A stretch of 62,883 nucleotides of DNA, counting the filler, from Hausera hauseri (lineage: Eukaryota): the NCBI GenBank assembly GCA_046269625.1. It is 11 parts of 11 records of this genome, joined end to end, with 100 filler letters (N's around TTAATTAATTAA, not from the genome) between each part and the next. Parts side by side here need not be neighbours in the genome. Positions count along the whole stretch, not along the records: positions 37,891 to 42,747 come from JBJURY010413700.1; 10 more parts are not named here. One strand, 5' to 3'. This document shows, in pieces, positions 6,451 through 61,361 of this stretch. The notes below the pieces were generated by a model. The model was not told where the DNA came from. It did not search any database and saw only the letters and a list, made by a program, of their open reading frames with translations. Every line of letters begins with the position of its first letter. Position 1 is the first letter of the stretch. Position numbers and translations under genes: made by a program.

Positions 6451-6551
6451 CCCTGCCGGGGCGGAGGTCCCGACTGTCAACCGTGCGCCGGTCAGTCGGA
6501 CGGCGCCTTCCGCATCGGCCCCCCCCCAGGCGCACCACTTCTTTCCCTCCT

Positions 6552-20269: not shown

Positions 20270-21852
20270 TCCCAGAGTTGTTGTTGAGTGGAGGAGTTAC
20301 AGGACTCCTGAGTTGAACAAAGTGAAGGAGTCTCTGAGTTGGAAGAGATCCTGAGTTGAAGAAGTTCAGGAGTTCCAGAGTTGGAGGAGTTGTTGTGGTT
20401 AGATGATGAACCTGAGTGACTCAGTGTTGGACAGCTTGCTGCACATGTGAAGGAACTCCTGACAAGCTGAAATAAAACACAAACATGTACTTGAGGCTAA
20501 CGGTCATATGAATAATGACAAACCTAAATTTGTATTGTGTGTTTGTTCTACATAATGCTGTCTGCTCACTCTGATGTAATCTGTGGGACTTACCTTTGGA
20601 CAGCTTGCGGCTGATTGGAAGCCACCCTTCTATGTATCTGTGCGTACTAAAACGGGTGGCGTGCAGCATGTGGTACATCATGGCCCCCAGCTGCCAAACG
20701 GTGGTCGGTTCAGCCTTGTACTTGTGGTCTTTAAACCACTCTGGGGGCGCAAATAGAAAGGTACCTGGAAAACACACATGAACACAATAATGACAAAGCT
20801 GTGTTAGAAATCACTCAAACATTATGAGCAATGATCTTAATTCTTTTGAAACGACCTGTATTTGTACTACAAGTCTAATGTCACACAAAGGAAATAGATC
20901 CATTACAATACTCCTCTTTTCCTAAATATACCTGCATGAAAGCAGGAACTTNNNNNNNNNNNNNNNNNNNNNNNNNNNNNNNNNNNNNNNNNNNNNNNNN
21001 NNNNNNNNNNNNNNNNNNNNNNNNNNNNNNNNNNNNNNNNNNNNNNNNNNNCTAATGTCACACAAAGGAAATAGATCCATTACAATACTCCTCTTTTCCT
21101 AAATATACCTGCATGAAAGCAGGAACTTAAAATGGTTTAAAAGAACTATGACTGGATCTTACCACTGAATCTCGTAAAGAAACCCAGCTGATGGTAAGTG
21201 CTGCATCCGAAATCAATGAGGCGGACGCGTGGGCTGGAGGAGCCGGTTTCTATTAATGTATTTGCAAACTTCAGGTCGCGGTGGAAAAGACCTTTCTGCT
21301 GCAAGTCCATGGCTGCCTCCAGCAGCTGAGACATGATTGTCTGAAATAAAAAACAACAAATGCACTTAATTAAAAAAGGCTCTGAGTTTGAAAATGTATT
21401 TCTGTAATAACAATCAGAACAAAAATAAAAACAAGCACATTTTAAAGATGCAATTTAACAAATGGACTGGAATGATTCAAATCCATATCAAACCACACGT
21501 CCTTCATTTATTTTAGGACAGTTCTTTCTATCAATAATTTAAAGTTTGGTCATTTCCTGACTGATCTTTAAAAACTGCAGTAAACTGTGTCCCTCACAGA
21601 ACACACAGTATTTGTGTCATCTGTAACATCATCAGGTCTAATACCTTAGCCTCACGCTCCGCCAAAGGGCCTTTTTTGGATCTCATGTAATCACTGAGAT
21701 CCATGCAAGGATCCGGTCTCTCCAGGACCAGGACTAGTTCCTGCTCAAAGCAGTACCAGTCCAACAGCGCCACTGAAGCACACTTCCCCACTGAGTCAGG
21801 CCCGCCTCCTGCCTTTAGAGTCAACTCTACCTCAGAGGGAAGAGTGTGCTCC
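20270..21852 (-). CDS. pimr: fish pim-related Ser/Thr kinase, multi-exon, partial
   Basis: Exons LLDWY..LVLERP (21643-21852), HRDLKFAN..IDFGC (21163-21341), GT..APPEW..TVWQLG (20593-20765), with GT/AG boundaries. Confidence 0.85.
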
Positions 21853-25264: not shown

Positions 25265-28200
25265 GGCAGCATTAAACAGAAAAGCCCGCAAATATTTCAT
25301 TGATGCAACAGGTCAAACAACCATCAAGGAGGTCCTGGAGACCACACAAAGGACAAGACAGAGGGGATTCTTCAGGACAACATGGCTGAGCTGAAAGCCA
25401 TTAAAGTTAATATGAAACTTGAGGCCCCATACATCAATGTTGATGGCGACGAATCCGAAACGGCCTTCAAGATTAAAAATAGGCCAATTTTTGAAGCCAC
25501 CAATAGAGCAGAATGGCTTCATGAAGAGCATGCAAAGCTGATCCGTGAGAACCGGAGTTAAAAGAGTGGATTGACTCCGGAAACTATAAGAGATTGCTTG
25601 TGTATGTGCACAAGTATTCTCCAATGCGTGGCACTTCATATATTTAGTTCCCTGATTGGATCGCTAATAAAAAAGCATGTGTCAATGTCCTTAATTATGA
25701 CAACAAGTGTTTCATGTATGCCATTTTATGTAAACTCGTATGAGACAAAAAAACATGCAGCAGATCGAGTTTGGTTATATAATGATGTGAAGTAAAACTA
25801 TGACTTCTAATGTATTAAGTTCCCTCCATCCTTAGATGAAGTCAAGAAGTTCAGCCGAATCAACAACATATCCATCAACATCATTGGATTGAATTAGGAG
25901 GACAAATTTTATCCCCTGCAAATGTATGATACTAAATTGGAAGATCATAGGGATTTGCTCCTACTAGACAATGGAGAAAAGAAACATTATGTTTGAATCA
26001 AGAACTTTGAGCGTCTAGTAAGATCTCAAATTACAAAACGTACAACAAGAATCGAAATATGCAAACGATGCTTTTCTAATTTCAGCGGCGATAAGGCCGT
26101 GGACAAGCTTGCAGAACACAAGATGTACTGAAACAACAATTATTGTATCATACCAGAATTTCACAAGGAGGACTATATTGAATTAGAGGAGTTCGAGAAG
26201 ATCAAGGTCCCAGTAGTTATTCATTGTGACTTTGAAGCTATTCTCCGGAAAATTCATAGCTGCACTCCTAGTCCTCAACATAGCAGCACAACGGCATACG
26301 AATATCATGAACGATCATTGTATTGTATGTATGGCAAAGGATTGGGCAGTGAACCATTTCTATTCAGGGGTCCGGATGCAGCAACACATTTCATGAAACG
26401 ACTTGAAGATATGGCTCATAAGATTGAAAACATGCTTCAGCAGCATAAGGATACAATGAGCATGTCGTGGAAACAAGCAGAAGAATGGCGCAAGGCAACA
26501 GCATGTTACTTGTGCGACAAGTCCTTTACCAAGGAAAATCATAAAGTCAAGAATCATTGCCATTTTACAGGTGCATATCGATGGGCAGCATGCAACAACT
26601 GCAATCTTCGCTGAAAAACATGTACATATGTGCCTGTAGTGTTTCACAACCTCAGTGGCTATGATTCCCACTTCATTGTTTGGAAACTGGGCAGCATTGA
26701 AGGAAACATTTATGCGATCCCCAACAGTGAGGAAAAATACATCACCTTTACCAAGCATGTGGGTAAAATCAGGCTTCGCTTCATAGGCAGCTTTTGTTTT
26801 ATGTTGTCTTCACTGGACAGTTTAGTGAAGAACCTCCCTGAAGAAAAACTCAAAGAGACGAAGCTGTTCTTTCCCACTGCATTTGATCTCGTCAAGAGGA
26901 AAGGCGTGTTTCCCTATGACTACATAACCTCATGGGAAACACTGGATGAGACGTCATTGCCGGCAAAGAAGGACTTTTACAATATCTTATCTGATTGCGA
27001 TATCAGTGATGCTGACTACCAGCATGTCCAGAACGTCTGGCATGCATTTCAATGCCGAACAATAGGAGAATACAGCGACATATACCACAAGACGGACGTG
27101 CTGCTTCTGACAGATGTCTTTGACAGCTTCAGGGATGTTACAATGAAGAGCCATGCATTGGATCCGGCTCATTTCTTTACAGCTCCAAGGATAAGCTGGG
27201 TAGCAATGGTGCGCTATACTGGTATTCGACTGCAGATCATTAGAGATTACGACATGATCCTTATGATCGAGAAAGGCATTAGAGGCGGAATATGCCAGGC
27301 CATTCACCGGTATAGCGAGGCCAATAACAAATATATGATCGAATACGACTCATTCAAGATATCCTCATATATCATACCTGGATGCCAACAACTTGTATGG
27401 ATGGGCCACAAGCATCCCATTGTCATACGATGACTTCAAATGGGTCGAGAATCCTGAAAACATCCCTATATTGGACCTGGATCTCACAGAAAATACGAGA
27501 TACATACTGAAGTTGCATATGGAATATCCGGCTTCCATCCGCGCAATGAATCTACAGCTGCCTTTCCTCCCTGAGTGCAGGCCTTTGCCCCATGGCAAGC
27601 TGAGAAAGCTGCTCTGTCATCCGGGTAATAGGGACAGGTATGAAGTCCACTACATCAATCGCCATCAGGCAGTTAGACATAAACTTCGTATTACCAAGAT
27701 CCATAGAGCTCTGCATTTCATCCAGTCCATGTGGCTGCAGCCTTACATAGATCTCAATACGAAGCTGCGGACAAATGCCAAGAATGACTTTGAGAAGGAC
27801 CAGTTCAAGCTTTACAACAACTCGGTCTTTGGCAAAACTATGGAGAATACCCGCAACAGGATCAACATCGAATTGGTCTCTGAGTGGAAGCAGGCAAAGA
27901 AGCTCATTGCCAAGCCCAACTTCCACAGCAGCACCATATATGCTGAGAACATGGTCAGCATCCATATGCTGAAAACAGCACTGGTATTCAACAAGCCAAT
28001 ATATATGGGTATGGCAATCCTCGACCTGTCAAAGATCCTAATGTTTCATTTCCAGTACGATATAATAGTCCCCAAGTTCAAGTAGATGCAGCTGATGTAC
28101 ATGGCTACTGACAGTTTCATCTATTAGATCCATACAGATGATATTTATGAGGACTTTGCCGAATTGGCCCAACATATGGATACCTCGGACTAGACGAGGT

Positions 28201-37790: not shown

Positions 37791-38176
37791 NNNNNNNNNN
37801 NNNNNNNNNNNNNNNNNNNNNNNNNNNNNNNNNNTTAATTAATTAANNNNNNNNNNNNNNNNNNNNNNNNNNNNNNNNNNNNNNNNNNNNTCTTCACCTC
37901 TTTACCACACTCTCTGTTTTCCATTGGACTCTAAGTTATTGAACTCCAGCACCTTTGTGACCTCTGCTCTTTGTATCCTCACTTTTCCACCTGCTTCCAA
38001 TGTTTTCTTCTTTATGGTACGTACATATGGGGGTGTCGTTTGTCAAGTTACACAGTCAAAAATTATCAGCAATATTTTGATTTATTTAAACTTTAATAAG
38101 AAAAAAACAGGGGTTTGTTTTTCAAAGGGAGTTTTTCCCCATGTGATTCATACATTTAAAAATGTCATAGTTTATA

Positions 38177-38292
38177 AACTAAATATTTAACTTTCAACTT
38201 AAATATTTAGTTAAAAAGCTAAATATTTGACTTGCAACTTAAATATTTAGTTAGCAATCTGAATATTTAACTTGCAACTTAAATATTTAGCT
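38177..38292. repeat. ~41-bp tandem repeat (3 copies) with internal palindromes
   Basis: aactaaatatttaact..caacttaaatatttagtt units. Confidence 0.8.
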
Positions 38293-39079
38293 TTTATTTC
38301 GATTCAATTTTTCAATTGTATTTTCATTTCTTTATGGAACTGTTTATGACCATAAAATCCCCATTAATCAGAAATGTTGCAGACAGTTTGGTGCTAGCGA
38401 CCTTTCGTGGAGGTAGGTTGATGCACTAACAAATTGAGGTTTCGAATCTTATTTTTGATACTTATTTTATGCAAGGAACGGGTTGATTTGGTGCAAATCC
38501 ATAGAAGCTAAACTAATATATGGTGTGAGAAAATCCTCATAATTCTATTGCAAAAGTCAGGCTCGGCAGATATAACAGACCCATTTTCGATGGACCTATT
38601 TATGGTGGCTGCGCATACCGAGGCCACCACTCAGATTACAGGTTGGTGTTTCTGATTGTTGTTTTTGGGCCACCCTGCAGCTGCACTTATGTTCTCTTCT
38701 AAACGCTTGTACTTTAAATACATGTTAACTCATGAAAATGATAAAAAACTGAATTAAAAGACTGTCTGATATTTTACGACTTCATGTGCATAAACTGCAG
38801 TGCCACAGCATAAATCATTCAACAAAGTACATTCGAATCATGGGCACTTCACCTTGAGACGGCAATTATAGAACTCGATCATGCTCCAAAATCCGAACTT
38901 CACTATGAAGCTTTCAGGGCTGTAGAGGATATTTGCAATTTATTGAGTACATAGAATATTACGTCTAAACCATGAATTTTGGCCAACTGCTATGCGTAAA
39001 CCGCAACAGCATTTCGCCAATTGGGAATCTCATATTGGTTTCATGCAGCAACATTACATAAATTTTTTTCAGCAAAGCA

Positions 39080-41180
39080 TACCGACGAAATTGACACTAA
39101 AAGATCTCAAAGATCCGTTAAGTCATATTTAAAAAAGTCTCCCAGTCGTACAAAAATGTGGAATTTGTAAAATGATCGCACCCAAACAATGCAATCCGTC
39201 ATTTGTAGTTGACTATAAAACCTTTAATTTTCGACCACGTGTCCAACGATTGAATGAAGTTGGGGTCCATGCGATAATAATAATAAGTTTTGTTCATTCT
39301 TTAGAGGCGTATTGGCAAGTTCAAAATTGCCGGTGGGAGTTGCCGATGGTTCGCAATAAAAAATTGGGTGTATTCAAGTTGCATAAAAAAGTAAAGAAAT
39401 ACGGCGGTGGCCAGCAGGCGACAAAGAACAAGCAATGGACACAGATTTGTCAGCTTTTAGGATTCGATGAGAAATCACATCATGTCTGTACGATGGTTCA
39501 AGAGTCTTTCAAAAAATTGATTAAACCGTATTTGGATTTCTGCTATGAGACACTTCAGAACTCCAATCTCAATTTGTTTCATGATCCAAATTTGATTCTA
39601 GGCCTCCAAAATTAGAATCAAAATTGACATTAATTTCGGATCGCCGAAAATAACTCGTTCAAAAAGCAAAGCATCGCAAAAGATCACGGACAGAAGTTGT
39701 AAAATTTATGAATCGGACAGCAATTCAAAACAACTTATACGTTATAGCAAATGTTGTGGTTGGTACCACATAGTTAGTCTCGGTCCGCCTTTATCCGATA
39801 TGCCACTGGGTAAACACTGGATGTGTATTCGTTGTAGTCACATAAATTGCCGGAGAGAACTAGCTAAGCTCGATGCTGAAGTGTTTGGGTTTGCTCAGTC
39901 CACGTGTAAATATAGTTTGGTGATATTTGCAACATACTCAGATAATTTCAAACACACGCATTCCAAGGACAGCAAAGTGATGGAGAATTCTTGGACATAT
40001 TACCCTGGTTTTAATCAGACATTTTTCTACAGAGACCGTCAATTTTTTGCCCGCCTGATTGGCTTATAAAAGTCCGCTTATCCGTGACAAATTATCGATC
40101 AGTCAAACATCCATCGATATTCTCTCATTACGAATTTGTCAGTAAAATGGAAACTGCCGTTGAATTACTCGATCTTCTTCTACTGAAAGCTGTTCATCAC
40201 GAAATACTCGTCATCCAACCAGAACAAAAACCATCAAGAATACAAATGTATTTATCAGTTCAAGTTACTTATCGAACTGAAAGATAGCAACTCGATAAAA
40301 TATCAGAAGACGAACCAGAACGTATTGTCTGTCGCACAACTTCGTTAATATCAGGTGTAACGCGTACCCTCTGTGGTACATTGTAAATGGAGTAACTAGT
40401 CTCAATCACATCAAAGATGTTTGTCACTGTTCAAATATAATAAAAATCATTTTAAAAAACCGTTATTCATTGGATGAAATTACAGGTCTAGCGAATAATG
40501 TTAACAAACATCTGGAACAATACAGACTGTGGAAGGCTCTTGTTCATCATTTGACAAAACCCAATTTCTGTGCTAATATCATTCCGGCTGAGGAATATCG
40601 ATTTATCAAAAATATTTCAACAGTTATTGAAAAGCCCAACACTCTGAAAGAGAAGAACATGAAGGCTGTGAATACTGAGAAAAAATGGACTTAGGGAGAC
40701 TCGGGATTCTTCTACAACACAAAAAGCATGAACTGTCCTTCTCATCTGTCGAACTTCTCAGAAGCAGTAACAGAGACGTGTTATCGAACAATGAACTTCA
40801 CAAATCAACTGTTGAATGCACATCAACAAACGGTCAAATTTGAAAAGCACGAAACAACAGAATCAATAAAATCCGAATTCAAATGCAAAAGTACTACTGT
40901 TTTCAAACGGAGTATTGCTGCACAGAAACATGAGAAACAAATTGATAAATCGACATTTCCTGAAATGCAATCATCTTTAGAGAAACTGAGAAGTCTATCG
41001 GACCATTTTCCACAACTTAAAGAGGCAGCACAAATTCCGAATTACAGTAATACCTGGAGGGAAAAGGTGAAATACGTCGTTCTAAGTCTGACTGTAACAA
41101 GCAATACGGACAGTAAATGGATAAATACTTTACTGTATTATGTGGACAAATGCGTTACTTCAGCCACCAAACAGGGTTCC
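39080..41180 (+). pseudogene. KDM5: KDM5/JARID1 histone demethylase relic (JmjN, ARID, PHD1, C5HC2, PLU-1), JmjC core missing
   Basis: DPLSHI..CGICKM..FRPRVQRLNE (JmjN); YWQVQ..KLHKKVKKYGG..KQWTQI (ARID); YHI..PPL.DMP.G.WMCIRC (PHD); FGFAQ..YSL; GFN..VNF..DWL; HIKDVCHC..RYSLDE. Confidence 0.9.
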
Positions 41181-41185
41181 GCCTC

Positions 41186-42747
41186 AACAGCCGAATTCTT
41201 CGGGGGGAGAGTTTTCCCCGGCACCTCTGTGTTATTGGTGCGGATCGACATCCTCGGTCGCTCATCACAGAGCCGTGGGTCGCGTGTCATGCAGTGCGGG
41301 GACATTACATCACGCCTCTGGCTCTAGCCATCCCTCATTTTCAATTCTCATTTTTAAATTTAATACACATTAAAACATATCACGCATGTAACAGTACATT
41401 AGGGAAACATATACACGTCGATTTTTAAAGTCTTCCATCTTTCTGAATTCACTCTATTTCTGAATGGACTTATTCTTTACCCCGACGAAATGATGTGCTC
41501 TTTTCAATCACTTCTTTCCTGATATCTTAATCTAGAGCTAATTCCTAAACTCCGCGGTGGCTCTGATCCAACCTCTGAGGAGATAAAGAAATCTCCAAAT
41601 ATAACTTTTGCTTCCCCAACTCCATCTTCTTTCCCACATTTTCAGTTCGCGGATTTTTCTTCGGTAGTCAAAACTCTTGTTGAACATGGCTAGATTTCCA
41701 GGCAAAGCGGAAAGTCCCACATAAAATCACTGATTCGTTTCAAAAGGCGAAAAGTCTACTTTTCCATCTGCCACCCAATATAAAATTCGGCATAACTAAT
41801 CCTTTTGACACCTTTAATCATTCTGATCTATACAAATCGCTACTTGACGCTGTAACTACATCAACTGAGCCTCCGCTAGATTCTAATTCAAAAATACTTC
41901 AACGAAAATGCTCTTGGCCAGCAAAAGCCTTCGGAATTCCTTCGGACCTCACTTTCGCAATTAAACTCATTCGGCGTAAACCAACAAAATAACGCGGATC
42001 TTCACAGACACTATTTCCTCTCATCTTTGCCAATCCAAATCCGCGCACTTCTCACTGTAGTGGAGGATTCTTCGTCGCTTGACAAACTGGCGCAACTGGC
42101 GGACAGAAGTTATGAAATATTTCATAACAGCAATTCACACACAACCGTTCTAAATCTACAAGCAACGCAATCACCAACAATAGTTGCAAACCTGCAATCA
42201 GCAAATTCATCAAACAATGCGCATACTACAATTAACCAAATTTAAAATCTGCAATCCATCAGGCCATTTGGGCCATTTCTAACAAACTTGACTCTTTGTA
42301 CCTGCCGCGTCGTGATCGTTTTAGCACAAACCGGAGCCGACAGTCGTCTGCAAACTCTACGCATGCTCAGTCACCTTCGCGACAAATGATGTGCTATTAT
42401 CACACTAAATTCAATAGAAATGCAAAAAATGATGTGTATGGTGAAAGTTCTATACAAAGCGTTTTTACTCACACAATGCAGTCCGCATCTACCATGGTAA
42501 GTTTAAAGACTGTGCAAAACGCTGCTTACCTGGGTGTAAGTTTTACACCCAAAACATTCCAACTTCTTCATCTATTCAAAAAACCACTAAAGCCGCCAGA
42601 AACTACGGCAAATTCTGGCAAAGGCCATCTGTTCCGTTTTGACTGCCGTACTTCTACCAATAGCGTTTTCTTATTGGATGCTGCACTCACATCTTTTCCT
42701 ATACACATTGAATTTATGATCGATTCAGGTGCAGCTGTTTCATTACT
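41186..42747 (+). mobile_element. CsRn1-like Gypsy copy 2: leader-UBL-gag-frameshift-PR start
   Basis: SEFTLFLNGLIL..LNLELIPKLRGG|SDP; LPIQIRALLTVV..LDKLAQLADR; CYYHTKF; IDSGAAVSL. Confidence 0.9.
41338..41561 (+). pseudogene. ubiquitin-like domain at the Gag N-terminus (copy 2), frameshifted
   Basis: ILIF..SEFTLFLNGLIL..LELIPKLRGG, with GG at 41556-41561. Confidence 0.7.
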
Positions 42748-43056
42748 NNNNNNNNNNNNNNNNNNNNNNNNNNNNNNNNNNNNNNNNNNNNTTAATTAAT
42801 TAANNNNNNNNNNNNNNNNNNNNNNNNNNNNNNNNNNNNNNNNNNNNACATGCATCATGATGTGAAAGCATTGAAATAAAAAAAATAAAAATTATAAATC
42901 TCTAACATAAAATAACGTCATAAAATACGTTACAACCTACACAATATAGAACAACTAACAACACTCTATCTAATATAAAAAGACTATGTACATAAACTAC
43001 ACATGAAAAACGTGAGAAAATACGATAACATTGTATTAAAGTATAGCTTGTGACAG

Positions 43057-43078
43057 GCACTACAATACTCCCCGTGGC
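43057..43078 (-). promoter_or_regulatory. polypurine tract and 3' LTR start
   Basis: Minus strand GCCACGGGGAGTAT-TGTAGTGC; same motif at 61362-61388. Confidence 0.7.
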
Positions 43079-46000
43079 TGAGATGAATTGTAAATAAAAG
43101 ATTGAAAGGAAATCCCGAGACCAAACTGTTTTAAAAGGTTTTGTGAGTACGAGGCGTTGTAATCCATCGTTATATAATTGTCTGCTATAGATGATAAATG
43201 TGATTGATTTTCGCTATATTTTCACTGTAGTGTCTGAATGCTTGCTGGGTTTGGCAAAAACACATTAGTTTTAGTATGATTGGGTGTTGTGTCTGGGGAA
43301 GGTAGAAAGAGATGATTGTAGGTAAATTATTCCAGTTTTCTGCGACAGTTTTGGAAGGTGATAAGTTGGCCGGTGAAGTAGAAATAGGCGAAGGTATAGA
43401 AATAGGGTGTGGAGCAGAAATATAGGTAAAGATAGACGTAGAGGGTAATGCAGAGATGGGGACAGGAGTGAGATTGGTAGATGACGATATATGTAAGAAT
43501 TTTTGTTATGTAAAAGTATGCAAAACGAATCTTTGATGATTATGACAAAGTGATCCTGTGCTGCTCGTATTCTATCGTCTGTAGAAGTCTCTTCAAGAGC
43601 GGTACAGAGGTTCCGAATAAAGCTTCCGTTGGTCAGCATCCTGTGGAAGTAGACGGGGTGTTCCATCATCCAAGCAGAACGAACGGAAGAAGAGTACTCC
43701 ACTTGGTGTTGGACTGTCCAAGGATTATAAGCGATGTTTTCAATGTTCGATGGAAGCGTTCGAGAAGGCCGTTCAATTGGGGATGATAAGGTGTTGTATA
43801 AATGTGGCTTATTCCCAATGGGTTGATTAGGGATTCAAACAAATTTGACTCGAATTACAGACCTTTGTCTAAGATGATATAACGAGGAGACCCGAATCTA
43901 CTAATCCACGTACGGATGAAAATATCGGCTATAGTATCAGTGTTTGTGCTTCGCAGTCGGATGGATTCCGGCCATCGTGAGGAACGGTCCATCATGGTCA
44001 GAATAAATTGGTGCCCGTTATCTATTGGAAGGGAACCGACGATATCAATATGTACTGTTTCAAAGCGTGATGTGCAAGGGAAGTGGAATAATGGTGGTTT
44101 TAAATGTTTTATGCTTTTATATTTCTGACAAGGCACGTACTCTTTAACGCACGCTTGCACATCGGAGTGCATGGACGGCCAAACTACCTGACGTTAAATT
44201 AAGCAAACGTTGCCTTGGCACCAGGATGATGTAATAAATGTACACTATCAAATGCTTTTTGTGTAAAGATGGGGCAAGAATTATTTTAGAATTTCCTGGT
44301 TTGGAAGTATCTAAGGCCACGCCGTTAACGATGTGGTGAGAATTGAACGACTTTAGAACGTCTTAGGATGGCTGATTTTCTTGCAGTTTTGTCTGAGTAA
44401 AAATTGGCGAAAAATTGACTGAACCGACTGATCTAGATTGGAAATCGGCAAATAGATTGTCAACACCGTCAATGTGTTTAATGTCAAAGTTAAACGTGGA
44501 TAAATTTGAAATTTGTCGTTCTTGTCGAGTTGAAGGATGTTTTATTGTCATTACATTAATCAGCGGTTTGTGATCAGTCTGTATAACAAAATGACGAGCT
44601 GTAAGTGAAATAAACGTCTTAAAGCAAGGACTATTTCCAGAAGTTTTGTGGTAGAAAGTTGAATATCTAGTTTTGGGCGGCGTTAATTTTCGGGGAAAGA
44701 ATTCTAGGTGCTGATTTTCGCCTTTATATAACTGGTGTAATACGGCGTCTACTGCGATGTTTGATGCATCTGCGGTCAAAATTATTTCAGCGTTAGGCTT
44801 AGGAAATGATAGTATTTCAACGGTCTTTAGTCCTTCACGTAGTCTATCAAACTTGTTAACCAGTTGTGGTGTCCATATGATTTTCTGGTGTTCTTTTTCC
44901 TCCACTTAAGTGTGCAAAAGGTGCTGTGAGTTCTGAACAATATGGGGTATATTTGTGGACGAAATGCAGGGTAGCAAGAAAACTGCGCATTTCACTGGTT
45001 GTCTTGGGTAGTTGGAGGTTTTTCAGAGTCTCAACTCGATCAGGCTAAGGCGAATGGCCTCTTGAGGAGATAATATGTCCAAGAAAATTAACATGTTTTT
45101 GGAAGTAGTTACATTTCGCAAAATTGATCTATAGGTTAAACTGATTAAGTTGTCTGAAGACATATCGTAGGTGTTCCTCGTGTTGTTTAACAGAAGAAGA
45201 AGCAACCAAGATATCGGCAATATATGGATGAGCAAAAGGGAAGTCTGAAAGAATTGTGTCGACTTGTCGCTGAAAAGTCTGCGCAGCATTCCGGAAGCCG
45301 AAAGGCATGTACAAATACTCATAAAGACCGAAAGGTGTGGTAACTGAAGTTTTTTCCATGTCTTCAGGTGCGACAGGAATTTGGTCGTAAGCTTTGTCTA
45401 AATCAATTGCTGAATAGACTGTAGTAGTATTAAGCCGATATAATATGTCTTTGATTAATGATAGTGGATATGCATCCATTATGGTTAAACTATTAGGCTG
45501 GGGATTATTGCCGCATGGTTGGAAGGATCCATCTTTTTTGGACAACGTCGAGAGGCGAAGACCATTGGGATTTAGACCTGCGGACAATACCTGATTGTTC
45601 AAGGTCAAAAAATTCCGCCTCTACTGTTTGCCTGCGGCGCGATGACAATGGACGGACCTTTTGTCGAATTGGTCTTTGGTATCGTGTAAATATATGGTGG
45701 TAAATGCCGCTTACAGGAATGGAATTCCGATCTTTCTGAAGTATACGAGGGCAAGAAGTATGGATGAATTGTTGTAAACTTACGGGTAGTTGCTGGAATC
45801 TGGGAAGTTACAATGAACCGATTTTGCTACCAGTACTTGGTGAATGTTGATTGATTGTTGGTGGAGAAATCAGTGGAGTTTGTCTGAGACCTTATTTAAG
45901 TACGTGTTGTTGTACGGTGATTTTACTGAAGATACAAGATCGTGAGTGACGTCATTGAGCTGTGACTGATTATCGACATTCCACTTTAAAAGCTTACGAG

Positions 46001-47618
46001 GTAAAACGTGATAGTTAAGAAAATCAGGGTGTTGTGTTGACTGTTTTAAGATTGATTGCCTACTTACCGTTGGCTGTGCTGTCGTCGGGTGCCTCCTATC
46101 CCTGCATTACAGTCTTCGGGTGTATTTGATTTCAAACATCGTTGGTTACAATCGACTAGCAAATTATAGCGCAACAGGAAATCGGAGCCAACTATTACCA
46201 TCTGAACGTTAGCGACTGTAAACGTCCAATAAAATAGTGAGGAAAGTTTTGGGTAAATGGAAGATAATTTGCAAGTTCCAGCAATATGCAGGAGTTGACC
46301 GGAGGCGGTATATAACGGTTTTGTTTCAAGTGAAGAATTCTGAACCCGGAAAAAAGTGGTAATGAGATCGCTGCGCCAGTATCGATGAGAATGTCTATTG
46401 CTTGAATGTTGGGATTAGAGATAGCAGCTTTTAGTGCAAAGACTGCAAATGAAGTGTGTCGGCAAGAAGAATTAGGACATTTGCCTTTGCCAAGATCTGC
46501 CATGAATACTGGCGGCGGAATCAGTTTTTTTTGGATTGATGAGGTTGGTCGATCAATGCTAGAGAAACTGGGGCGTATATCAGTAGTGTAACTACGGTTA
46601 GTTTTATAGTGGCAGCATGAAATACAGTTCCGAGCACTTGATCCATATGTTGCATGATAGATGCAAACAATGTTATCTGAGTGTAGATGTGAGGAATAAT
46701 ATCTACAGCCTAAACAGCATTTCTTTGTTTTGTTATTAAATTTGTTATAATAATAACATATGAATGAACATGTTGGTGACGGTGTTCCATTTCTTGAGAC
46801 ATAGCGCGTTCGATAGTGAAAGAAAGCATTCCGTCGATATCATGAAAGGTCATTCAGCTTATCATTGATGTTATTGATTGTAAGTTGTAGTGCCGCATTT
46901 TCGGCGCGTAACTGGTTCAATTGGTGTTCGATAGATGTATATCGTTGATTATCGTCGGTCGTAATTTAGGCTGATATGACGGGTTGTGATTGTATTAGTA
47001 AAATTTCGCGTGCTTTATCGTCCAATTCAGTTAGTTTATCTAAAGCTGCAGAATCCTCAACAACAGTAAGTAGATCCCTGATTTGGATGGGTAAAGCGTT
47101 AAGAAAATATCGGCGGAGTAAATCTGGAATTGTTCCTTGGTGACACCCAGGGTACGTAAGTGGGTCAACGAGGTCCCTAAGAAATTATTAAGTTTTGTTT
47201 CCCCATTGCGTTTTCATTAAAGAATCTTTGTATTATCGAGTCAATTGGTGGTTTTGTTAGTTTTAATACAGCACTGAACAATTGCATATAAGGGTCAGGA
47301 TGTTGAAAGATATCCAATAAGTTATGGATTGAGGTTTTATGGAGTTTGATAGAAGGTAGAGTAGATTATGGGCTTTGGTTAATGAATCGGTAATGCCGTT
47401 GGATTGAAGCCAATGTTGGTGGAAGTGGAGCCATGTCTTACTAGAATTTTCATTGTCTGTAAAGTATTCAGAGCAATGAGAACGTGTAATTGTAGGGGTT
47501 TTGTGAGAAAAACTAGTATCGGTCGAAGTGGTTAGTTGATTTGATTTTGGATAGTTGACAATGGATTTGGTTTTGTGGCCGCCTTATCTGTGAAATCACT
47601 GGTCGGTGAAGAAATCAT

Positions 47619-47832
47619 ACCGCCGCGGATTCTAGGGTGGATATGAATACCGAGGTAGTGTTGTGAGGACATGATGTATGGGAGTTCGGTTAAAATGAAT
47701 CCATTGTGTGTCAAATAGAATTCACTAAAGGCAGTGGCTTTATAAATAGTCATATAATCGTGATGTGTCGATACGTTGTGTAATATATGCGGTATGTATT
47801 AATTTATCATTTACAAAAAGATGGATGTGAAT
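47619..47832 (-). pseudogene. ubiquitin-like domain at the Gag N-terminus (copy 3)
   Basis: IHIHLFVNDKLIHT..-(fs)-SEFYLTHNGFIL..GIHIHPRIRGG|MISSP. Confidence 0.75.
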
Positions 47833-48453
47833 TATCGTTGGTAAGGAGCAAGATGGGTGGTGTCGTATCTCTACACATTTTTGGGTGTATTCTGAGTGAG
47901 TGATAACTTTGTGTCTTTGAATGGAAAAACGGTCAATCTCTTTTTAACAAAGAAGTATTCTCTACTGTACAGTGACTCGCGCAAAACATTCCAGGATTCC
48001 GTACCTGATTTTTAGATCGATGGAAAAAATAAACCAATGGAATTAAATACTTCAATCTCATTAATTAATGACGAATGTTCACAAGGAAATATGGCACACT
48101 CGTGAGACTCTTTAATACTGTGTTTAAACTTTGTTCTAGAACTGATGGGAAAAGCATTCTGATAGTCAATATCAACAGCACATGATATTCGTGGTCGTGT
48201 TGCAATAACATATAGGTGTGTCAATACCTGCAAATGGTATCTTTTTCCAGGATAGGTTGGAGGGAATCTTGGGAAAAAGACTAAGAAGAAATGCAGAGCA
48301 CTTTGTAGAATTACATAGAATAAGTGTTCCGCCGCCTATGAATAAAAGCCCAATGAACATAGACACCGTAATGAAGCATATCTTTAACTCTAATTATTGG
48401 TCGAAGGCTTCGAGACATACATAATCGCATTAAATTACCAATGCCGGATACAA

Positions 48454-49114
48454 TCATGCACGCCGATAATTAGAGGTTGGATAAAGCCTGATCATAAAAG
48501 TATTGCCCAATGTTCTCCAATAATTGCAATCATTTTTATTGGATAAGAATTCCTCAATGTGCGAAAGAATAGTAGCAAGACCATCCCGCTTATACGTATC
48601 AGGGTATCGCATGGATATTACAAAACTTGACCCCACGAGTAACAAAAGGAAACCCTCGTTGGTCATCAGAATATACTTTTCAACAAAATCTGTCGGTCGG
48701 ACCTGTCGAAGGGAGTCGAGATGCCGAGGAAAATAAAAGCGTCTATTATATAAAACACTTGGAATTAGTAGGGCAAATTGTACAATATCGGTATAACGTT
48801 CTGTCTTAAAGAACCGATTGAAACGGGTTTCGGGATTAAATTCATTACGTTGGATTCCGTTCGTTTCAAAATTTTCAATCACTCTTGTATGAGGTTTGAG
48901 AAGCGGGGCCATGAAATAATAATTTTCATTATTATTCATATCTTTGATAGTTGTGTCAAGGTAGACAATAATAAAGGCAATCTCGTCATAATTTATTACT
49001 TTGTTGAGTTCCATAATTCTTTGATAGAGGCAAGCATTGACGGCGGCAACTATTTTAGTATTGTTATTGGAGCATAGAGTCAACAAATAATAAAATCCAA
49101 GCCCGGTAAATTCC
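48454..49114 (-). CDS. possible BEACH-family (NBEAL-like) protein fragment
   Basis: KVINYDEIAFII..LD, ENYYFMAPLLK and FVEKYI resemble a recalled NBEAL1 segment preceding PH-BEACH; unverified. Confidence 0.4.
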
Positions 49115-52260: not shown

Positions 52261-53235
52261 GTCTGAATATGAAATATCTGGGTTTTTAATTAATTATATA
52301 CAAAAAAACAGTTGACTTTGCTTCAGAGTGAGTTGTGCTGTGTCAAAAGGGTTTCCTTTTTTCCTTCTCTCCCCTGTGTGCTGATAGCGTTCCTGCTGGA
52401 CAGAGATGCATTTTGTACACATTCTTGTTTAATCCTTGTGAAGTTATAAGCTTTCTGCTGTCTTGGTTGTACTTTTTATGCTTTCAGTTATAATTGCTAT
52501 TGCTAAAGGGCATTCTGATATCATTTATTGTTTATGCATGCAAATTGTTATGTGATCGATCGAGGCGAGTGTTCGCCTGGGATAATTGTCCGCTTGTCCG
52601 CGTATTCCGGAAAGCCTGACAGTTTTTTCCCCCACTTCGTGTTGATTTTTCTGCTTTTGGCCAAGTAGAAAGTTGGCGCCTGCTTATTTTATAAGCTAAG
52701 GTAGAAGTGTTTGTCGCTGCGGAAATACTCCGTTTTAAGCTGCGGTTTTTAGCGGTTGCAGTTGACTTATTCCGTCAGCGTGATACTGACGGATTTCCAG
52801 AGCTTAGTGTTCTGAAGAGCAGCCTTTCGAGTCTGTTGGTAGAGGGGACCATCGCTGCGTGCGTTCGGTCATTGTGTTTCGTGATTACGGTATTAAAACC
52901 GTGTTGGTTGGTGGAGTGTCATTTCTGCCTCTCCGAGCGAGGCGAGCCAAGTGACGCCATTTTGGACAGAGAAACACTGTCTTTGAAGCCGCTCCCCCCA
53001 GGGTGGAGCATCGCTCTCATTGGTTTAGTAAACTTACCACCGTCATTAAATCCAAAAGTGCTTTAGTGCCATCGTGTGGACAATTTAAATTACTACTCCT
53101 TTGAAAAAAAAAAAAGTTTTTTTAAGGCAGTTTATAAGTTGAATTTAGGCTTCATTAACTCTTGATGTTAAAAGTCTTTTCACTTAAAACGCTTTAGAAA
53201 AAAAAATCATTCAAAAGTGTTAAATAACAGTAAAC

Positions 53236-56200
53236 ATGGCATCTGAGACAGATCTGACTGAACAAGGAGGAGACACATTCCTCCTAGATCATGAAGAGGA
53301 AAGACATGTTGTTACAGATTTAACGGAAAAAACTATTCCTGGCTATTTAGATGAGTTGGACAAACTGTCAGTTCCAATAGTTGAACAAGAATATGTTGCA
53401 ACTGCCCGTGGGGTCGTCACAGATAAACCAGGAGCAAAAGAAAGGCCTACAGTCCTAGGTAAAATGGTTTGTCAACTGGTGGTGCTGCGTCAACATAAAG
53501 AAAACAAATATGCAAATGAGGTCGAAGTTAACGAAAAACTCACAGAACAACTTAGACAAATGCAGTCTCAATTAAGGCAAACGCAAGACAAAATGACAGA
53601 GGTAAAAGAAAAACTCTCTGAAGAGCAGGAAAAAAATAAACAATATAAGGAAGACCTTGAAAACGCCAGAGAAAAACTCTCTGAAGAGCAGGAAAAAAAT
53701 AAACAATATGAGGAAGACCTTGAAAACGCCAGAGAAAAACTCTCTGAAGAGCATGAAAAAAATAAACAATATAAGGAAGAATCTGTTAAACAAAAGGCCC
53801 GTTATCAAAGCCTAGCAGATGAAATTGACCAAAAGCAGAATACTATTCAAAATCAAAAGGATGAAATTAACAATTTGAAAAGCGAATTACAAATTCGAGA
53901 AAAAGATCTCACCAACCTAACTGAGTCAAATATCCAGCTTAATCAGGATTCTCGTGAACGTGAAGAGGACTCAAGGTCCAAGGACCGGGAGAACGAACGT
54001 CTACGCCGTTTACTTAGTGAACGAGATGAAACAATCCAAAGACTAAGGTCCAGGAGAGACACTCCTGATGACACACGAGGCTCTGTGGGACCTCGAGACT
54101 CTTACGGTTCAATGGTCACTGATCCAGGTCTTCGGCCTGGCTTAGTGAGTCAAACTCCCCCAGATCCTCAGTCTAACAGAGTCCCCACTTACCCTGAACT
54201 GGATAAGCTAGTCAAGTCTATATCCCGTTTCGACCCGGTTCCAGGGGGTTCACATGACACTAGATCCTACCTACGTGACATTGATTTCTATTTAGAGCGA
54301 TTTCCAGATGCTACTGTCGCTCACAGGATTTACCTCATCAGATCTACGTCTAACCGAGAGGTAAGTAGGTTCCTTGAACGTCAACCCCCTGAGGTAAAAC
54401 AAAATTATCAGTTGCTGTGTGATGCCTTAGAAAGGCAGTTTTCTGGTCCAAGCTTACGAGCAGGCATTACAATGGCTTTAAATGTGAAACAGGATCGTCA
54501 GGAACCACCCAGTGTGTACTACGATCGTTTGTTCCGAGCTTATTTTGGGTCCAGAAATGAGCCAAATATGGAAGAAGATGTAAATTTTAAAGCTCTCTTC
54601 CTACAAAACCTACACCCTTTTGTGAGCGAACAGTTGGGTGTGACAGTTGATGCGCGCTCTAGCGCTCGCCAACTTGTCGAATGGACTACTATCGCTTTCA
54701 ATAAGCGTAAGGCCAGTAGGACCCCTGAGTCACATGTCTACGCAGTCGAGACTAGTTCTATGACAATGGAGCTAGAAGGAGCCTCCTCTGCGTCAGGCCA
54801 GACTAAAACACTTCCTTCTCCAAGGCCAGCCAGAAAAGAACAGTTTGGAAAAAAAAAAAGTAAGGGGTGGCAAAATTATCCACCTCGAGGATCCCCACCA
54901 CGATCGCCATCACAAGATGGACGTCCTATGAATAAGAAAAACTATGAGTACCAACGTTACCCTAAAGGGAACGAACGTGAGACACAAAGGGAGAAAAACT
55001 CTCCACCCCCTTTTCCACAGCAATTACGTTTTAAACAAGGTCAACAGCCACCAAAGACCAAAAAGAAAGCCCAAAAAGACTCTGAGGACTTTGAGTCTTT
55101 GGAACAGAAGTTGAAGGCCAGCCTGGAACTACAGAACAGATTGCGTCATTTATTATCACAGGGTGATAAAGGAAAAGATTCAAAAAACGCTGGAGTACTA
55201 TCCATTGTCTGTGATGACCCTCCTAAGGGTTCCCATCAAACAAGTGATGAGACTGACCCAGAACCTGATCCCCCTGGCCAAAATGGCTCAACCAATGACC
55301 CTGTGGATGCTGTTCCTAGCCCCACTGAGCCTCATTCAGAGCCAGAGCCTGAGTCGTCTGGTTCTGTGCTAGTGGTTCACACAGATAATGGGGATGGTGG
55401 GCCTTCTACAGACGGCAGCAGTGGTGTAAACAATGAACTGGTCCCAAAGGCTCAGTTTCTTTGTTACTTGAGCAAGAGGGGGGTCAACAGAAAAGTCTAT
55501 CTACCATTGGTTCTAGAACATGTTTTCCATCTCGATGCCTTAATGGACACGGCATCGGACGTAACTCTTATGTCCACTTCCTTGTTCAAAGAACTTCAAA
55601 CAGCAGTTCGCCTTGCTAACAGGGAACTCAAGGTACAGGCTTGTGCCTTGGACATTAGGCCCTACTCTCCCAGAGACACAACCCTATCCTCTGTGTCGTT
55701 GATACAGATACGGATAGGACCGATGACTCTGGTTCATCCGGTGTATGTGTCACCTTTGGAGAGTATCCCATTCCTTGTTGGCCAAGACCTCCTTATGAGA
55801 CTCGAACCAATGATAGACTGTCAAGGCTTAAAGCTATGGGCCCAAGTGAGTCATCCATTACCTGTTTCTTTCCCTCCTGGGGGTCTCCAGTGTCTACCGC
55901 TACTTCCCCCAGGAGACCCAGGTGCTTCCTCAACGGATAACCATCCAGTGAGTGACACCTCGGTAAACACAGATGAAGTTCAGGTAAGTGTACCTGTTTC
56001 TGACCCTGTAGGGGTTCAGATCGAACTGGTGGTCACCCAAGCCGACGCCTTAAACACTGATGAAGAAAGAGACAAGTTCAGGCAGCTCCTTCTAAAACAT
56101 AAGGGCTGTCTTTCAGTCGACTCTCTGGACTGTGGATTAACAACCATCCACACAGCCCGCATTCCAACTCCACCAAACGCCCCACCAGCGTTTGTAAGGC

Positions 56201-58004
56201 AATACAAAATCCCATTAGCATCACAGCAGCCTGTCCAAGAAATAATTGACAGCCTTTTGGAGAAAGGCATCATAAGGCCATGTAATAGTACTTACTCAGC
56301 ACCTGTGTGGCCTGTCATGAAGCCAAATGGTAAGTGGCGACTTACCATTGACTACAGACAGTTGAACAAACAAGTTCCGCTGTCTAGGTGGCCTATGACA
56401 CAGGTACAACAGGAACTCCCCAGAGTCACTGATGGTAAGTACTTTTCCACCTTTGACGTCGCTTCAGGTTTTTGGACCGTCCCTGTCCATAAAGACGACC
56501 ATCACAAACTGGCTTTCACCTTTGGAAGTCGCCAATACACTTGGACTAGGTGTCCCTTTGGATACTTAAACTCTCCAGCTGAGTTTAACATCTTTCTCAA
56601 CAAAGCGTGCCCCGACGCTACTGAACGCGGTACCTTAATTTATGTTGACGACATTTTGGTGAGACAGCCCACTTTGGATTCTCATCTGGCAGAGCTGGAC
56701 CATGTCCTGACCCAGTTAACAGCTGCAGGTTGCAAAATCTCACTGTTAAAGTGTCAATGGGCCAAGACTAAGGTGAACTACACCGGACTACTTGTGGGTC
56801 CTAATGGTGTACAGCCACAACTTAGTCGTGCCCAAGGTCTGGATGGTCTTAAGGTTCCTTCGAACCTAAAGGAACTACGCAGTTTTCTGGGCGTTTGTAA
56901 TTACTCACGCCAGTTTATAGAAAACTATGCAGACCTGGCGAAACCATTGACAGAACTCCTCAAAAAGGATGTTCCCTTCGTGTGGACTGACCGTCAGCAA
57001 CAAGCCATGGATGGCCTAAGGGCAAAGCTTAAGGCTGCTCCATGTCTAGCTTACCCAGACCACACTAAGGAATATCACATGGAAGTTGGCTTTTCTTCTA
57101 ACTGTCTAAGTTCGGGTTTGTACCAAATGCACGACCAAGATAAACGTGTAGTGGCCTACGCCAGCAGACCCATGAGCGGCCCTGAGTTTAAGTACTCAGA
57201 TTGCGAAAAAGCTTTACTGACCACTGTGTGGGCAGTTAAACATTTTTCTAACTACATTGGAGGCCAAAAGATTATCGTGGAAACTCATCACCAACCGGTG
57301 ACTTTCCTGAACAGTCAACGCATAAGAGATGGAGTTGTGACAAACTCCCGTGTGGCTGCATGGCTTATGGCTTTGCAAAGTTTTGACTTAGAAGTTCGTT
57401 ATAGTCAAAACAAAAAGTCACGGTTGGGCTCGGATCTGGCAATCTGCCAACAGTGCACTCAGGACATGCCTTTGACACGAGCTGTGCCAAACCCTCCTGA
57501 GACAGAACAAGACCCAAACCACCATTACTTTGATGAAACCATCTGCAAAGACATGCCAACTGTGTACGTGGATGGATGTTCGTTCCACCACGAAGCCGTC
57601 CGTAAAGCTGGTGTTGGGGTTGTGTGGAATCAAGGCCACCAACAAGACACCTTTAGCTTTAAACTGGGTTCCAAGACGTCTCAGTATGCTGAGATCGCCA
57701 GTGTCCTGGCCGCACTCCAAGTGGCCGTGGAGCGTTCTGTCCAAGCCTTAGTGGTTTGTACGGACTCTAACTATGCACGACTGAGTTTCTCTTGTCATCT
57801 TGCTTCATGGAAACAAAATGGTTTCCTCACTTGCAACAAGAAGCCTATCAAACACAAAGATTTGTTTGTGGCATGTGATCACTTGGTGACCTCACATGGC
57901 CTACACGTGTATTGGAAGAAAGTCAGGGGACACTCTCAGGTGCCAGGTGGTGACAAAGAGTGTAATGACCTGGCCGATTCTCTGGCCAAACGTGGAGCGC
58001 TGAA
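53236..58004 (+). CDS. gag-pol: open gag-pol polyprotein (coiled coil, Gag, PR, RT, degenerate RH tether, second RNase H), lokiretrovirus-like; cut by contig end
   Basis: About 1590 aa with no stop; DTAS protease; WRLTIDYRQLN; YVDD; RH1 MEVGFS; RH2 VYVDG..AEI..TDS..GH..NDLADSLA. Confidence 0.92.
53608..53780 (+). repeat. 63-bp coding tandem repeat, about 2.7 copies
   Basis: EKLSEEQEKNKQYKEDLENAR repeated. Confidence 0.9.
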
Positions 58005-59165: not shown

Positions 59166-60503
59166 TTAGACGTACGATGAAGATTGATCGGGAGACGTTT
59201 CCAACAATGTTCGTCGCATCATGTTGTTATATTTGGACAGAAGGCTGCTGGCATCATCGGACATTGTCATGGGGCTGTATCGACCATCTGTATGCCGCCG
59301 TGTGATCTCCATATTATTCCTAATGCGGTACTGTCTGATACGACTTGTCGTCATTGTACGATTAATCCGCGGCACCTGACGTGACTTAAATTGGTCCACT
59401 CGATTTGATGGGTCAGATCCAACATCTGCATAAATAGGCAAAACTCTTCGTGATGCTGTGATAGTTGTTTCACTATCCGTTGTCCGACGAGTTTGCACTC
59501 CATAATGACGCACAACTGGATGAACATCCAGATCAGTTGACCAATAGGAAATCAACTGTTGCGTCATTGTTGCTACGTCCTCACCATACACAGACATTGT
59601 CTGTATTGATCTGCCAGTAGTTTGTAATTCAGTCTGTGTAGATGCATTACGTTGTCGTCGAGGATCAATCAATCGAATATCAATGTAACCATCGTTACTG
59701 CCGCACTCTGCATTCGATGTATCGGGTGTATTCGTATTGACATGCGCATCGCTTGTTTGTACGAATGAGTCGCACTCTGTCGCAACGGATTTGACGGATT
59801 TCGATAGTAGATTGGCAATGATGCTGGTGAATGCAGACTTATCACTAGCTGCAGTAACGTATAGTCGTTCAGTTGTGTCGCGGTTGTCTGTGAATTGCGT
59901 CTGCTCGTCCGTCGTTACGTCCTGCCAAATCTGACTAACGAACTGTTGATTACTGTTGACTATAGGTATAAATGAACACACTGTTGTTTCTTCTACCGAT
60001 GTCTCTACTTCCTCCTGTTCATCATTTGTTCCTTCTGCTGATGCCGACAATACTGACTGTCTCAACTGCCGTAATTTCTCTTTGCATCTGCGCAGTTTAT
60101 ATCGTAACTTGTCAATCAGCTTTTGCTGCTTTTCTAATTGAGAATTATCGATAACAGTTGGTTCAGAAATGACAATGGGTTCGACAAATGTTTTATTATC
60201 ATCTGTAGCAGCCACAATCTCCTCCTCTACATATTTCCCATTTATTTTGTCACCCAACGCAAATCTAACGTTCCTTCTCGTCGCTGCCATGGCAACCGTT
60301 GTTGATGTGCCGAAAATCGAAAATTCATCACCGGAATTGTCGTAATTTTTCCCCCAGTTTGAACCATAATAAGTTCGGCTGACGTTCTCGACTGTTCCTA
60401 TTTTCCCAGTAACCAGAGACGAATTATCATAAATAAACTCATTTTCTGTAGAACCAGTAAATTGTGGACCTTTGTTGAAATATCGGTGTTTGTAAGACAT
60501 CAT
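59166..60503 (-). CDS. hypothetical 445-aa protein: coiled coil plus T/S-rich region with multiple TQT-like motifs
   Basis: Intact intronless ORF; RNVRF; QLEKQQKLIDKLRYKLRRCKEKLRQL; ASTQTE, SIQT, GVQT. Confidence 0.7.
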   Translation of the reverse strand: MMSYKHRYFNKGPQFTGSTENEFIYDNSSLVTGKIGTVENVSRTYYGSNWGKNYDNSGDEFSIFGTSTTVAMAATRRNVRFALGDKINGKYVEEEIVAATDDNKTFVEPIVISEPTVIDNSQLEKQQKLIDKLRYKLRRCKEKLRQLRQSVLSASAEGTNDEQEEVETSVEETTVCSFIPIVNSNQQFVSQIWQDVTTDEQTQFTDNRDTTERLYVTAASDKSAFTSIIANLLSKSVKSVATECDSFVQTSDAHVNTNTPDTSNAECGSNDGYIDIRLIDPRRQRNASTQTELQTTGRSIQTMSVYGEDVATMTQQLISYWSTDLDVHPVVRHYGVQTRRTTDSETTITASRRVLPIYADVGSDPSNRVDQFKSRQVPRINRTMTTSRIRQYRIRNNMEITRRHTDGRYSPMTMSDDASSLLSKYNNMMRRTLLETSPDQSSSYV

Positions 60504-60919
60504 GCATAAAACGTATCAATTCACTGTTGTGTGATAATTGAAATTATTGACTCATTAAAACAAAACTGCAGCACATTGAGCAGAGTAAAATGAGATTATG
60601 TATGAATGGAATTCAACAAAACCGTATATGTCAATACTTCAAATTCTCAGTTGAAAATGAAAGAAAAGTAGACAAACTTCGGTGAATTGAGTTCGTGGGA
60701 AGCTTGTGACGGTGACAATGCAAAATAACTCAATTGGGGGGGGAGGTGTAGTTTGGATAACATATAACTTCCAATAAATAAGAAATTCAAATAAAAACGC
60801 TGAAGCAGGCGATAAAACGATTGTATTTTTTTAACTTTCAAATTCAAATGGTCAATCTTCAATTCGGAATCAATAATTTGTACAGTTAAATGTATTTGCA
60901 AATATTTACACAGTTTTGT

Positions 60920-61354
60920 TCAGTCACACATGTTTCGAACAGAAAAGCGTCCAAGGAATGTTGTGAACGTGTGAGACGATGTAACTGACTCGAGTACTTC
61001 TTGTTTAACACTAGCAGGTTGTTCTGGTATAAAATTGGTAGGTCTATTCACTGATAATTGTAGTTTCATTCCAATATCATCATTGGCATCATCATCTGTC
61101 AAGTCGACTCTCTGCATAGCTTTGACATCTTTTAAGTAATCATCATTGATTTCGTTGTAAAAAGAGAAAGGGTTTTGCCATTGACTTGGTAGTAATATAC
61201 CCTTCTTGCTCGTCCTTTCCGGTCTCTGTAGATATGAAGTTTCCAACTTTCGCACTAACGATAATAATGTTGATTTTCGCGATTTTTTGTGTCGTATGGT
61301 CACATGGCGGGAAAGATCCTTCCATCGGCACACTAATTTCCCCAGTGCGACCAC
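60920..61354 (-). CDS. hypothetical ORF directly downstream of the copy-4 3' terminus
   Basis: 144-aa frame with a protein-like C-terminal half; no ATG start. Confidence 0.3.
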   Translation of the reverse strand: MVALGKLVCRWKDLSRHVTIRHKKSRKSTLLSLVRKLETSYLQRPERTSKKGILLPSQWQNPFSFYNEINDDYLKDVKAMQRVDLTDDDANDDIGMKLQLSVNRPTNFIPEQPASVKQEVLESVTSSHTFTTFLGRFSVRNMCD

Positions 61355-61361
61355 ACTCTAA

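Follow-up and report, generated by a model that had tools for sequence, protein, structure and literature searches.

Several described systems resemble parts of the elements considered here. In the yeast retrotransposon Ty1, Gag starts inside the 5' long terminal repeat (LTR) and the primer site lies within coding sequence. LTR elements are usually crippled by gene capture. In cytopathic pestiviruses such as bovine viral diarrhea virus (BVDV), ubiquitin insertions serve as a host-cleaved processing site. The available portion of one account places the captured ubiquitin or ubiquitin-like sequence at a polyprotein junction, often within mosaic inserts (PMC13517609). The available portion of a study of the maize element Bs1 describes LTR-mediated retroposition, in which template switching captures pieces of host mRNA, sometimes from several genes and often with in-frame products (Tan et al., 2016; PMC5131818). 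We analyzed 62,883 nt of the Hausera hauseri assembly GCA_046269625.1 (hereafter the window), which contains four decayed copies of a retrotransposon family whose Gag follows a ubiquitin-like domain (UBL) ending in Gly-Gly (GG). With moderate confidence, we read them as decayed Ty3/gypsy copies in which the first open reading frame (ORF1) begins further upstream, Gag is set free after UBL-GG by a host deubiquitinase, and the disposable leader tolerates captures of host sequence in the sense orientation.

Some 12 contigs, with spacers of 100 N between them, make up the window. Its four element copies lie on four different truncated contigs, each 4.8-6.3 kb long, and share 64-70% DNA identity where alignable. 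Missing are the 3' ends of copies 1 and 2, both of which stop inside pol, and the 5' end of copy 4, which begins in integrase. The initial annotation had found no conventional 5' LTR in any copy. With all four contigs truncated, such an absence cannot be demonstrated from the window; a polypurine tract (PPT) followed by a TGTAG LTR start is present in copies 3 and 4. The features of copy 1 are as follows.

4430 to 5300, plus strand: RB-family relic, intronless and frameshifted, with the end of pocket A and pocket B (Pfam; end coordinate by eye)
5530 to 6387, plus strand: decayed sense frame, whose 5 frame breaks compare with 9.5 in shuffled sequence (p 0.013)
6357 to 6545, plus strand: GC-rich linker, open in the UBL frame (0 stops across 6357-6758)
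6546 to 6758, plus strand: ubiquitin-like domain with a Gly-Gly end (profile built from the relatives' UBLs, E 5e-11)
6759 to 10015, plus strand: decayed Gag (DUF7041-like, two CxxH boxes), protease, reverse transcriptase (RT) and RNase H; the contig end cuts off the rest

The RB relic, whose 5' part is lost at the contig start, matches RB_A (E 2e-6) and RB_B (6e-14/3e-7). The sense frame at 5530-6387 had no match in a Pfam scan. The UBL and Gag of copy 1 are preceded on the same strand by an RB relic and this sense frame, in line with the initial annotation.

Copy 2 is preceded by host sequence of a different origin.

38521 to 38532, plus strand: candidate primer-binding site, two mismatches to the family 12-mer (sequence match)
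38805 to 39128, plus strand: eIF3a PCI/TPR-like fragment with stops, adjoining the KDM5 relic (PF22591, E 1e-14)
39133 to 40550, plus strand: intronless KDM5 relic with ARID, PHD1, C-terminal helix and C5HC2, and three frameshifts
40551 to 41330, plus strand: continuation of the last KDM5 frame and GC-rich linker, in the UBL frame
41331 to 41561, plus strand: decayed ubiquitin-like domain with an LRGG end (UBL profile, weak at E 0.009)
41562 to 42747, plus strand: decayed Gag and protease start, repetitive in run X1; the contig end cuts off the rest

The ARID (2e-15), the PHD, the C-terminal helix (2e-10) and, weakly, C5HC2 of KDM5 are recognized. The PHD-side match ends only about 100 nt before the C-terminal helix; the JmjC domain is therefore missing. 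The eIF3a piece, which had been overlooked at first reading, adjoins KDM5 and makes the relic a mosaic. From 40299 to the GG at 41561, the last KDM5 frame runs unshifted; its 421 codons include 6 stops, where the two other frames have 28 and 22. This bears out the proposal that the KDM5 frame enters the leader of copy 2, both on the plus strand, though clear KDM5 similarity stops near 40550 and the following ~780 nt, in the same frame, resemble no named gene. A single contig of run X1 covers this junction (40119-41747) with 0 differences; X1 may be the source sample, so the match argues only against misassembly. The candidate primer site lies upstream of both host relics, with a post hoc chance of 0.011 in the 914 nt before eIF3a and 0.056 in the whole upstream part. 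DNA upstream of 38521 is non-coding and repetitive in X1, which fits either an LTR or an unrelated repeat. At the start of this contig are a high-copy fragment (37891-38290), by eye similar to a long interspersed nuclear element on the minus strand, and a 20-nt palindromic tandem repeat (38168-38290).

These relics could also be read as disrupted loci, an ordinary LTR element having inserted in sense into host coding sequence with its LTR kept open, and with the host promoter and AUG driving a host-LTR-UBL-Gag fusion. The ~780 nt of no named origin between the KDM5 similarity and the UBL suit such an insertion, which we nevertheless consider unlikely: it leaves unexplained the mosaics (eIF3a with KDM5 here, DIS3L with CNOT1 in a relative), the missing JmjC and the cargo found downstream of the primer site in relatives, and no LTR start was recognized between relic and UBL.

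The association of UBL and Gag extends well beyond the window. A search with the UBL-Gag frame of copy 1 had 1806 protein matches at E<=0.001, the 150 best of them listed. Among the proteins examined for a ubiquitin-like GG motif, it was present in 28 of the 47 that have two CxxH boxes and in 3 of the 114 that have one; many of the 19 two-box proteins without the motif are short fragments. Pfam ubiquitin matches at E<=0.05 were obtained for 9 of 31 proteins scanned, with P0058 near true ubiquitin (4e-23), and a profile of the relatives' UBLs matched copies 1 and 3 and, weakly, copy 2, all by sequence profiles only. In the Gag tree, 40 rows with a UBL or double box form one clade against 9 single-box rows (support 100/100). 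Copies 1 and 2 cluster with P0010, P0011, P0013 and P0165 (100/99), the copy 2 row filling 35% of columns; of these relatives, P0011 and P0165 bear host cargo. Outside the main clade, P0131 has a RING piece and a UBL ending in LRGG ahead of an ordinary single-box Gag, possibly a second origin of the ubiquitin-Gag fusion. Near-authentic ubiquitin before Gag in P0058 and L019, both nested among relatives with diverged UBLs, suggests repeated re-capture of ubiquitin. The Pfam match of Gag to DUF7041 is weak; by this match and its Gag box, the family may belong to the CsRn1/Kabuki-like clade.

Intact relatives were located with a DNA pattern for the second CxxH box, which gave 40 loci (L001-L040); L002 and L023 (bacterial genes) and L024 (ordinary Gag) were dropped as non-family. 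A slippery-type heptamer follows the second zinc box, at the end of gag, in all 36 loci examined for it, consistent with a putative -1 gag-pol frameshift. Seven loci are circular units of 4.9-5.5 kb, and all seven have a PPT, a TGT start, an AT-rich LTR and a 12-nt primer site, which we presume matches tRNA-Leu. LTR length is 303-685 nt (8 loci), and each circular relative has a single LTR, as would be seen with collapsed pairs or with 1-LTR circles. The exact primer-site 12-mer occurs in 17 of the 40 loci; in the window, only the copy 2 candidate with its two mismatches was found. Elements without LTRs, as first suggested, are therefore not what the intact relatives are, and copies 3 and 4 also have a PPT and LTR start. 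The initial annotation had held that ordinary LTRs together with randomly oriented flanking genes would speak against its proposal, and the termini of the intact relatives supply part of this.

In 12 of the 13 loci scored, the Gag frame has 0 stops between the primer site and the GG; the other frames have 6-31. Two of the 13 are the same element; L016, L018 and L038 were left unscored with their 5' parts unjoined, L016 being open for 90 codons past the primer site and L018 having 4 stops in 453 codons. The Gag frame has its first ATG 94-324 nt before the primer site; where the LTR start could be placed, this ATG falls within the LTR. From these sequence patterns we infer that ORF1 would be translated from the LTR and cleaved after GG. 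Proline after GG blocks deubiquitinase cleavage; a by-eye tally of 29 proteins found it in none. Release of Gag from an upstream fusion by the putative UBL-GG cut site has strong indirect support, because the upstream frame is kept stop-free and Met follows GG in only 3 of the 29. A deubiquitinase cut at this point, which is likely, would make the upstream peptide disposable.

What the leader can hold is seen in 20 protein clusters with >=100 residues ahead of the UBL. Tool-supported host pieces are present in 6 of these 20: DIS3L-like with CNOT1, H2A, STAG, NT5C2, CARM1 and PP1. Arp8 (P0025) and HSP90 (P0026) were by-eye labels with no Pfam support and were left out of the counts. In ORF1 the primer site is recognizable by a peptide motif, with a background of 2 in 35,056 residues. 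It precedes the NT5C2 (P0164), PP1 (P0175; placement by eye) and CNOT1 (P0011/P0160) pieces, which would place the cargo of these three relatives in the leader and not in the LTR; it follows the DIS3L, CARM1 (by eye) and H2A pieces. Captured host sequence at the 5' end, one of two options first offered, is supported in 6 of 20 long-leader relatives; its placement inside long LTRs would not suit the three with cargo downstream of the inferred primer site and is one of several readings for the three to five with cargo upstream. The cargo appears to change within the frame: the NT5C2 piece of P0164 has in-frame deletions, and the near-identical pairs P0018/P0161 and P0011/P0160 differ by in-frame indels. 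DNA sequence for cargo comes from L028 alone, which is a single 1303-codon ORF with a STAG piece, UBL and Gag. P0020 is 90% identical to L028 in UBL-Gag with an unrelated N-terminal part, and shares a 120-residue upstream segment with P0019. Host relics are likely mRNA fragments captured into the leader, and we infer that those of the window lie inside the element. The 5' LTRs would probably be found beyond the contig ends in copies 1 and 3 and upstream of 38521 in copy 2.

Decay was expressed as the fewest frame breaks per kb that the sense strand requires, in the flank and in the element's own ORFs. Flank and own-ORF values were 3.8 and 2.9 in copy 1, 2.7 and 3.5 in copy 2 (KDM5 part), 3.2 and 4.0 in copy 3, and 2.5-3.2 and 2.9 in copy 4 (LTR plus downstream), so that in all four copies flank and element ORFs show a similar degree of decay. 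The intact relatives L028 and L029 had 0.4 and 0.0 breaks per kb. Antisense strands showed frame breaks like shuffles, and frame openness of the eIF3a part alone was not significant (p 0.11). This matching, in 4 of 4 copies and two intact relatives, is a difficulty for a reading that we consider quite unlikely, namely that these are UBL-Gag elements with lost or unassembled 5' LTRs amid unrelated retrocopies or pseudogenes, with co-orientation due to chance and ascertainment. The 421-codon frame common to the KDM5 end and UBL of copy 2 and the continuous ORF of L028 are also hard to reconcile with it. It gains from the short contigs (4.8-6.3 kb), from the prospect that most cargo proteins are gene-prediction artefacts, and from the small number of DNA loci with host matches, just four, for which the same strand in all would arise by chance 1 time in 16.

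Copies 3 and 4, both on the minus strand, show the 3' end of the element.

47850 to 49114, minus strand: copy 3 sense-coding upstream region, including a 219-codon ORF at 48457-49113 (4 frame breaks against 13.6 in shuffles)
47619 to 47849, minus strand: copy 3 ubiquitin-like domain with an IRGG end (UBL profile E 7e-5)
43300 to 47618, minus strand: copy 3 decayed Gag, protease, RT, RNase H and integrase
42848 to 43075, minus strand: copy 3 polypurine tract, then 217 nt from the start of the 3' LTR, TGTAG start at 43064; the contig end cuts off the rest
61500 to 62883, minus strand: copy 4 decayed integrase end
60747 to 61385, minus strand: copy 4 polypurine tract and 3' LTR, TGTAGT start at 61369, mostly open in one sense frame
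59166 to 60515, minus strand: 449-codon intact ORF downstream of copy 4

In copy 3, RT, RNase H and integrase were assigned by Pfam, and Gag and protease by likeness to copy 1 and the intact relatives. The ORF at 48457-49113 had been called NBEAL-like; it had no match in Pfam, PDB or Atlas searches and the label was dropped. No direct repeat of the 3' LTR was found upstream of the copy 3 UBL (p 0.42), in keeping with the initial annotation, though just 217 nt of LTR and 1.27 kb of upstream sequence were available for comparison; neither an inverted nor a direct 5' copy was significant. The copy 4 LTR has two candidate ACTACA ends, at 61059 or 60747 (p 0.004 for the latter). With no UBL beyond this LTR, an arrangement of tandem units was ruled out. 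The 449-codon ORF is probably a co-oriented host exon; no family was found for it, and it has a coiled coil and, by eye, an RVxF-like and several TQT-like motifs.

The PPT and LTR starts of copies 3 and 4 argue against the window subgroup being truly LTR-less at its 5' end and possibly primed by a PPT-complementary leader instead of a tRNA. Such priming would account for the want of a primer site near the UBL in copies 1-3, and motifs like the reverse complement of PPT plus LTR start do occur directly before the UBL in copies 1 (~6520-6545, p 0.04) and 2 (41299-41320, p 0.05) and within copy 4 past its candidate LTR end (60737-60752, p 0.004). These motifs are post hoc, missing in copy 3 and at p<0.05 in only 1 of the 7 circles, and the nearest relatives, P0011 and P0165, have primer-site peptide motifs; we regard this possibility as very improbable.

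The mechanism that we favor, with ORF1 beginning upstream and Gag released by the host, would involve four steps. The Gag frame would open in the LTR and continue stop-free through primer site, leader and UBL, a pattern shown in the relatives. Translation would then start at an upstream AUG, and a cut after GG would fix the N-terminus of Gag. As in LTR-mediated retroposition, a template switch of the reverse transcriptase to co-packaged mRNAs would introduce intronless, often mosaic, sense pieces, with Gag expression kept only by in-frame captures. Cargo would drift in amino acids and undergo in-frame deletions with its frame open, again a pattern shown, and after death of the copy it would decay jointly with gag-pol.

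Several observations weigh against this mechanism. L001 has a frameshift in its leader and L009, outside the scored set, one stop, which leaves 12 of 14 open. None of the cargo-bearing elements seen is full-length with an LTR at each end, L028 has no convincing family primer site in 2.7 kb, and no upstream sequence is common to any two window copies. Cargo proteins other than L028 may be spliced gene models, which is the main caveat, and their primer sites were read from peptide motifs, two of them by eye with one mismatch. The copy 2 relic is low-copy in X1, a result of little power: depth already falls inside the UBL and so says nothing about the LTR. The relics had been described as always co-oriented; RB, eIF3a and KDM5 are indeed on the sense strand, and six-frame scans of the four window flanks gave no antisense host match, but the unbiased DNA tally is small (5 sense matches in 4 loci, 0 antisense) and cargo proteins, sense by construction, add nothing to it.

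Other such observations would fit insertion into host genes. In P0011, P0165 and P0018/P0161 (by eye also P0025 and P0026), a host piece lies upstream of the primer site. Pieces so placed (H2A, DIS3L, CARM1) begin near the host N-terminus, which read-through from a host gene explains equally well; LTR cargo, such read-through and spliced gene models cannot be told apart here without DNA. The copy 4 LTR is almost open in one frame, and co-oriented host-like sequence also lies past 3' LTRs, as a CLN6 fragment in L029 (6439-6625, E 6e-13, element strand, ~590 nt past the 3' LTR start) and as the 449-codon ORF after copy 4, which is less decayed than the element itself. Against this, the circular relatives are closed for the first 100-340 nt or more past the pol stop.

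Elsewhere in the window, an exact 77-nt duplicate across a spacer inside a kinase gene (20875-20951 and 21052-21128) is an assembly overlap, so this spacer joins neighboring contigs. Two contigs (3151-4101 and 26132-27430) have a decayed protein-primed polB (PF03175), one with an endonuclease VII domain upstream; we take them to be Maverick/Polinton-like. An open 1593-codon gag-pol-like ORF (53224-58002) encodes RT and two RNase H domains, one of retroelement type and one cellular-type (PF00075), with 63-nt tandem repeats at 53607-53795 within its region. In a search of sequencing runs, copy 2 was matched by one run, with no RNA run among those listed. Viral contig scans for the element had no match, a tRNA gene scan found none, and an Rfam scan of the window, L028 and L029 had no match, hence no ribozyme was recognized in the GC-rich linker.

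If the favored mechanism is true, an autonomous element with a ubiquitin cut site before Gag could carry host fragments, and translate them, without penalty. Such elements would be a continuing source of chimeric retrogenes and the retrotransposon counterpart of ubiquitin insertions in pestiviruses, and they are predicted to depend on host deubiquitinases. We would extend this only tentatively, as a possibility open to considerable doubt, to a widespread clade that turned captured ubiquitin into a host-cleaved release site and its whole 5' end (LTR plus leader) into a translated cargo bay. Autonomous copies might then acquire, shuffle and transport in-frame host mosaics, borrow host start codons, and perhaps express KDM5 without JmjC, RB pocket, H2A, CARM1 and STAG as decoys against silencing. 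Literature searches, with most subscription journals and repeat databases outside their reach, found no description of a ubiquitin-Gag retrotransposon.

Each known system accounts for part of this organization. With Ty3/gypsy elements (Metaviridae, DUF7041 Gag) the family shares the Gag-protease-RT-RNase H-integrase order, PPT, TG-starting LTR, tRNA-type primer site and slippery heptamer, represented in the window by the domain order in copy 3 and the PPT and TG-starting 3' LTR in copies 3 and 4. It differs in the UBL-GG before Gag, the doubled CxxH box, the opening of ORF1 in the LTR and the host cargo in ORF1. As in Ty1, ORF1 begins in the LTR and reads through the primer site; Ty1 is a copia element, its translated stretch belongs to Gag, and it has neither UBL nor cargo. 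The intronless, mosaic sense fragments (eIF3a with KDM5; RB), their introns judged from the relics alone, resemble Bs1-type retrocopies. In Bs1, as the available portion of that study describes it, captured pieces take the place of element sequence and move within non-autonomous chimeras (PMC5131818), whereas here the cargo sits ahead of Gag, and in L028 Gag and the 5' pol part on its contig are intact. Finally, BVDV insertions are, in the available portion of the account cited above, sporadic acquisitions in an RNA virus, while the UBL described here is fixed and diverged across a large clade of retrotransposons.

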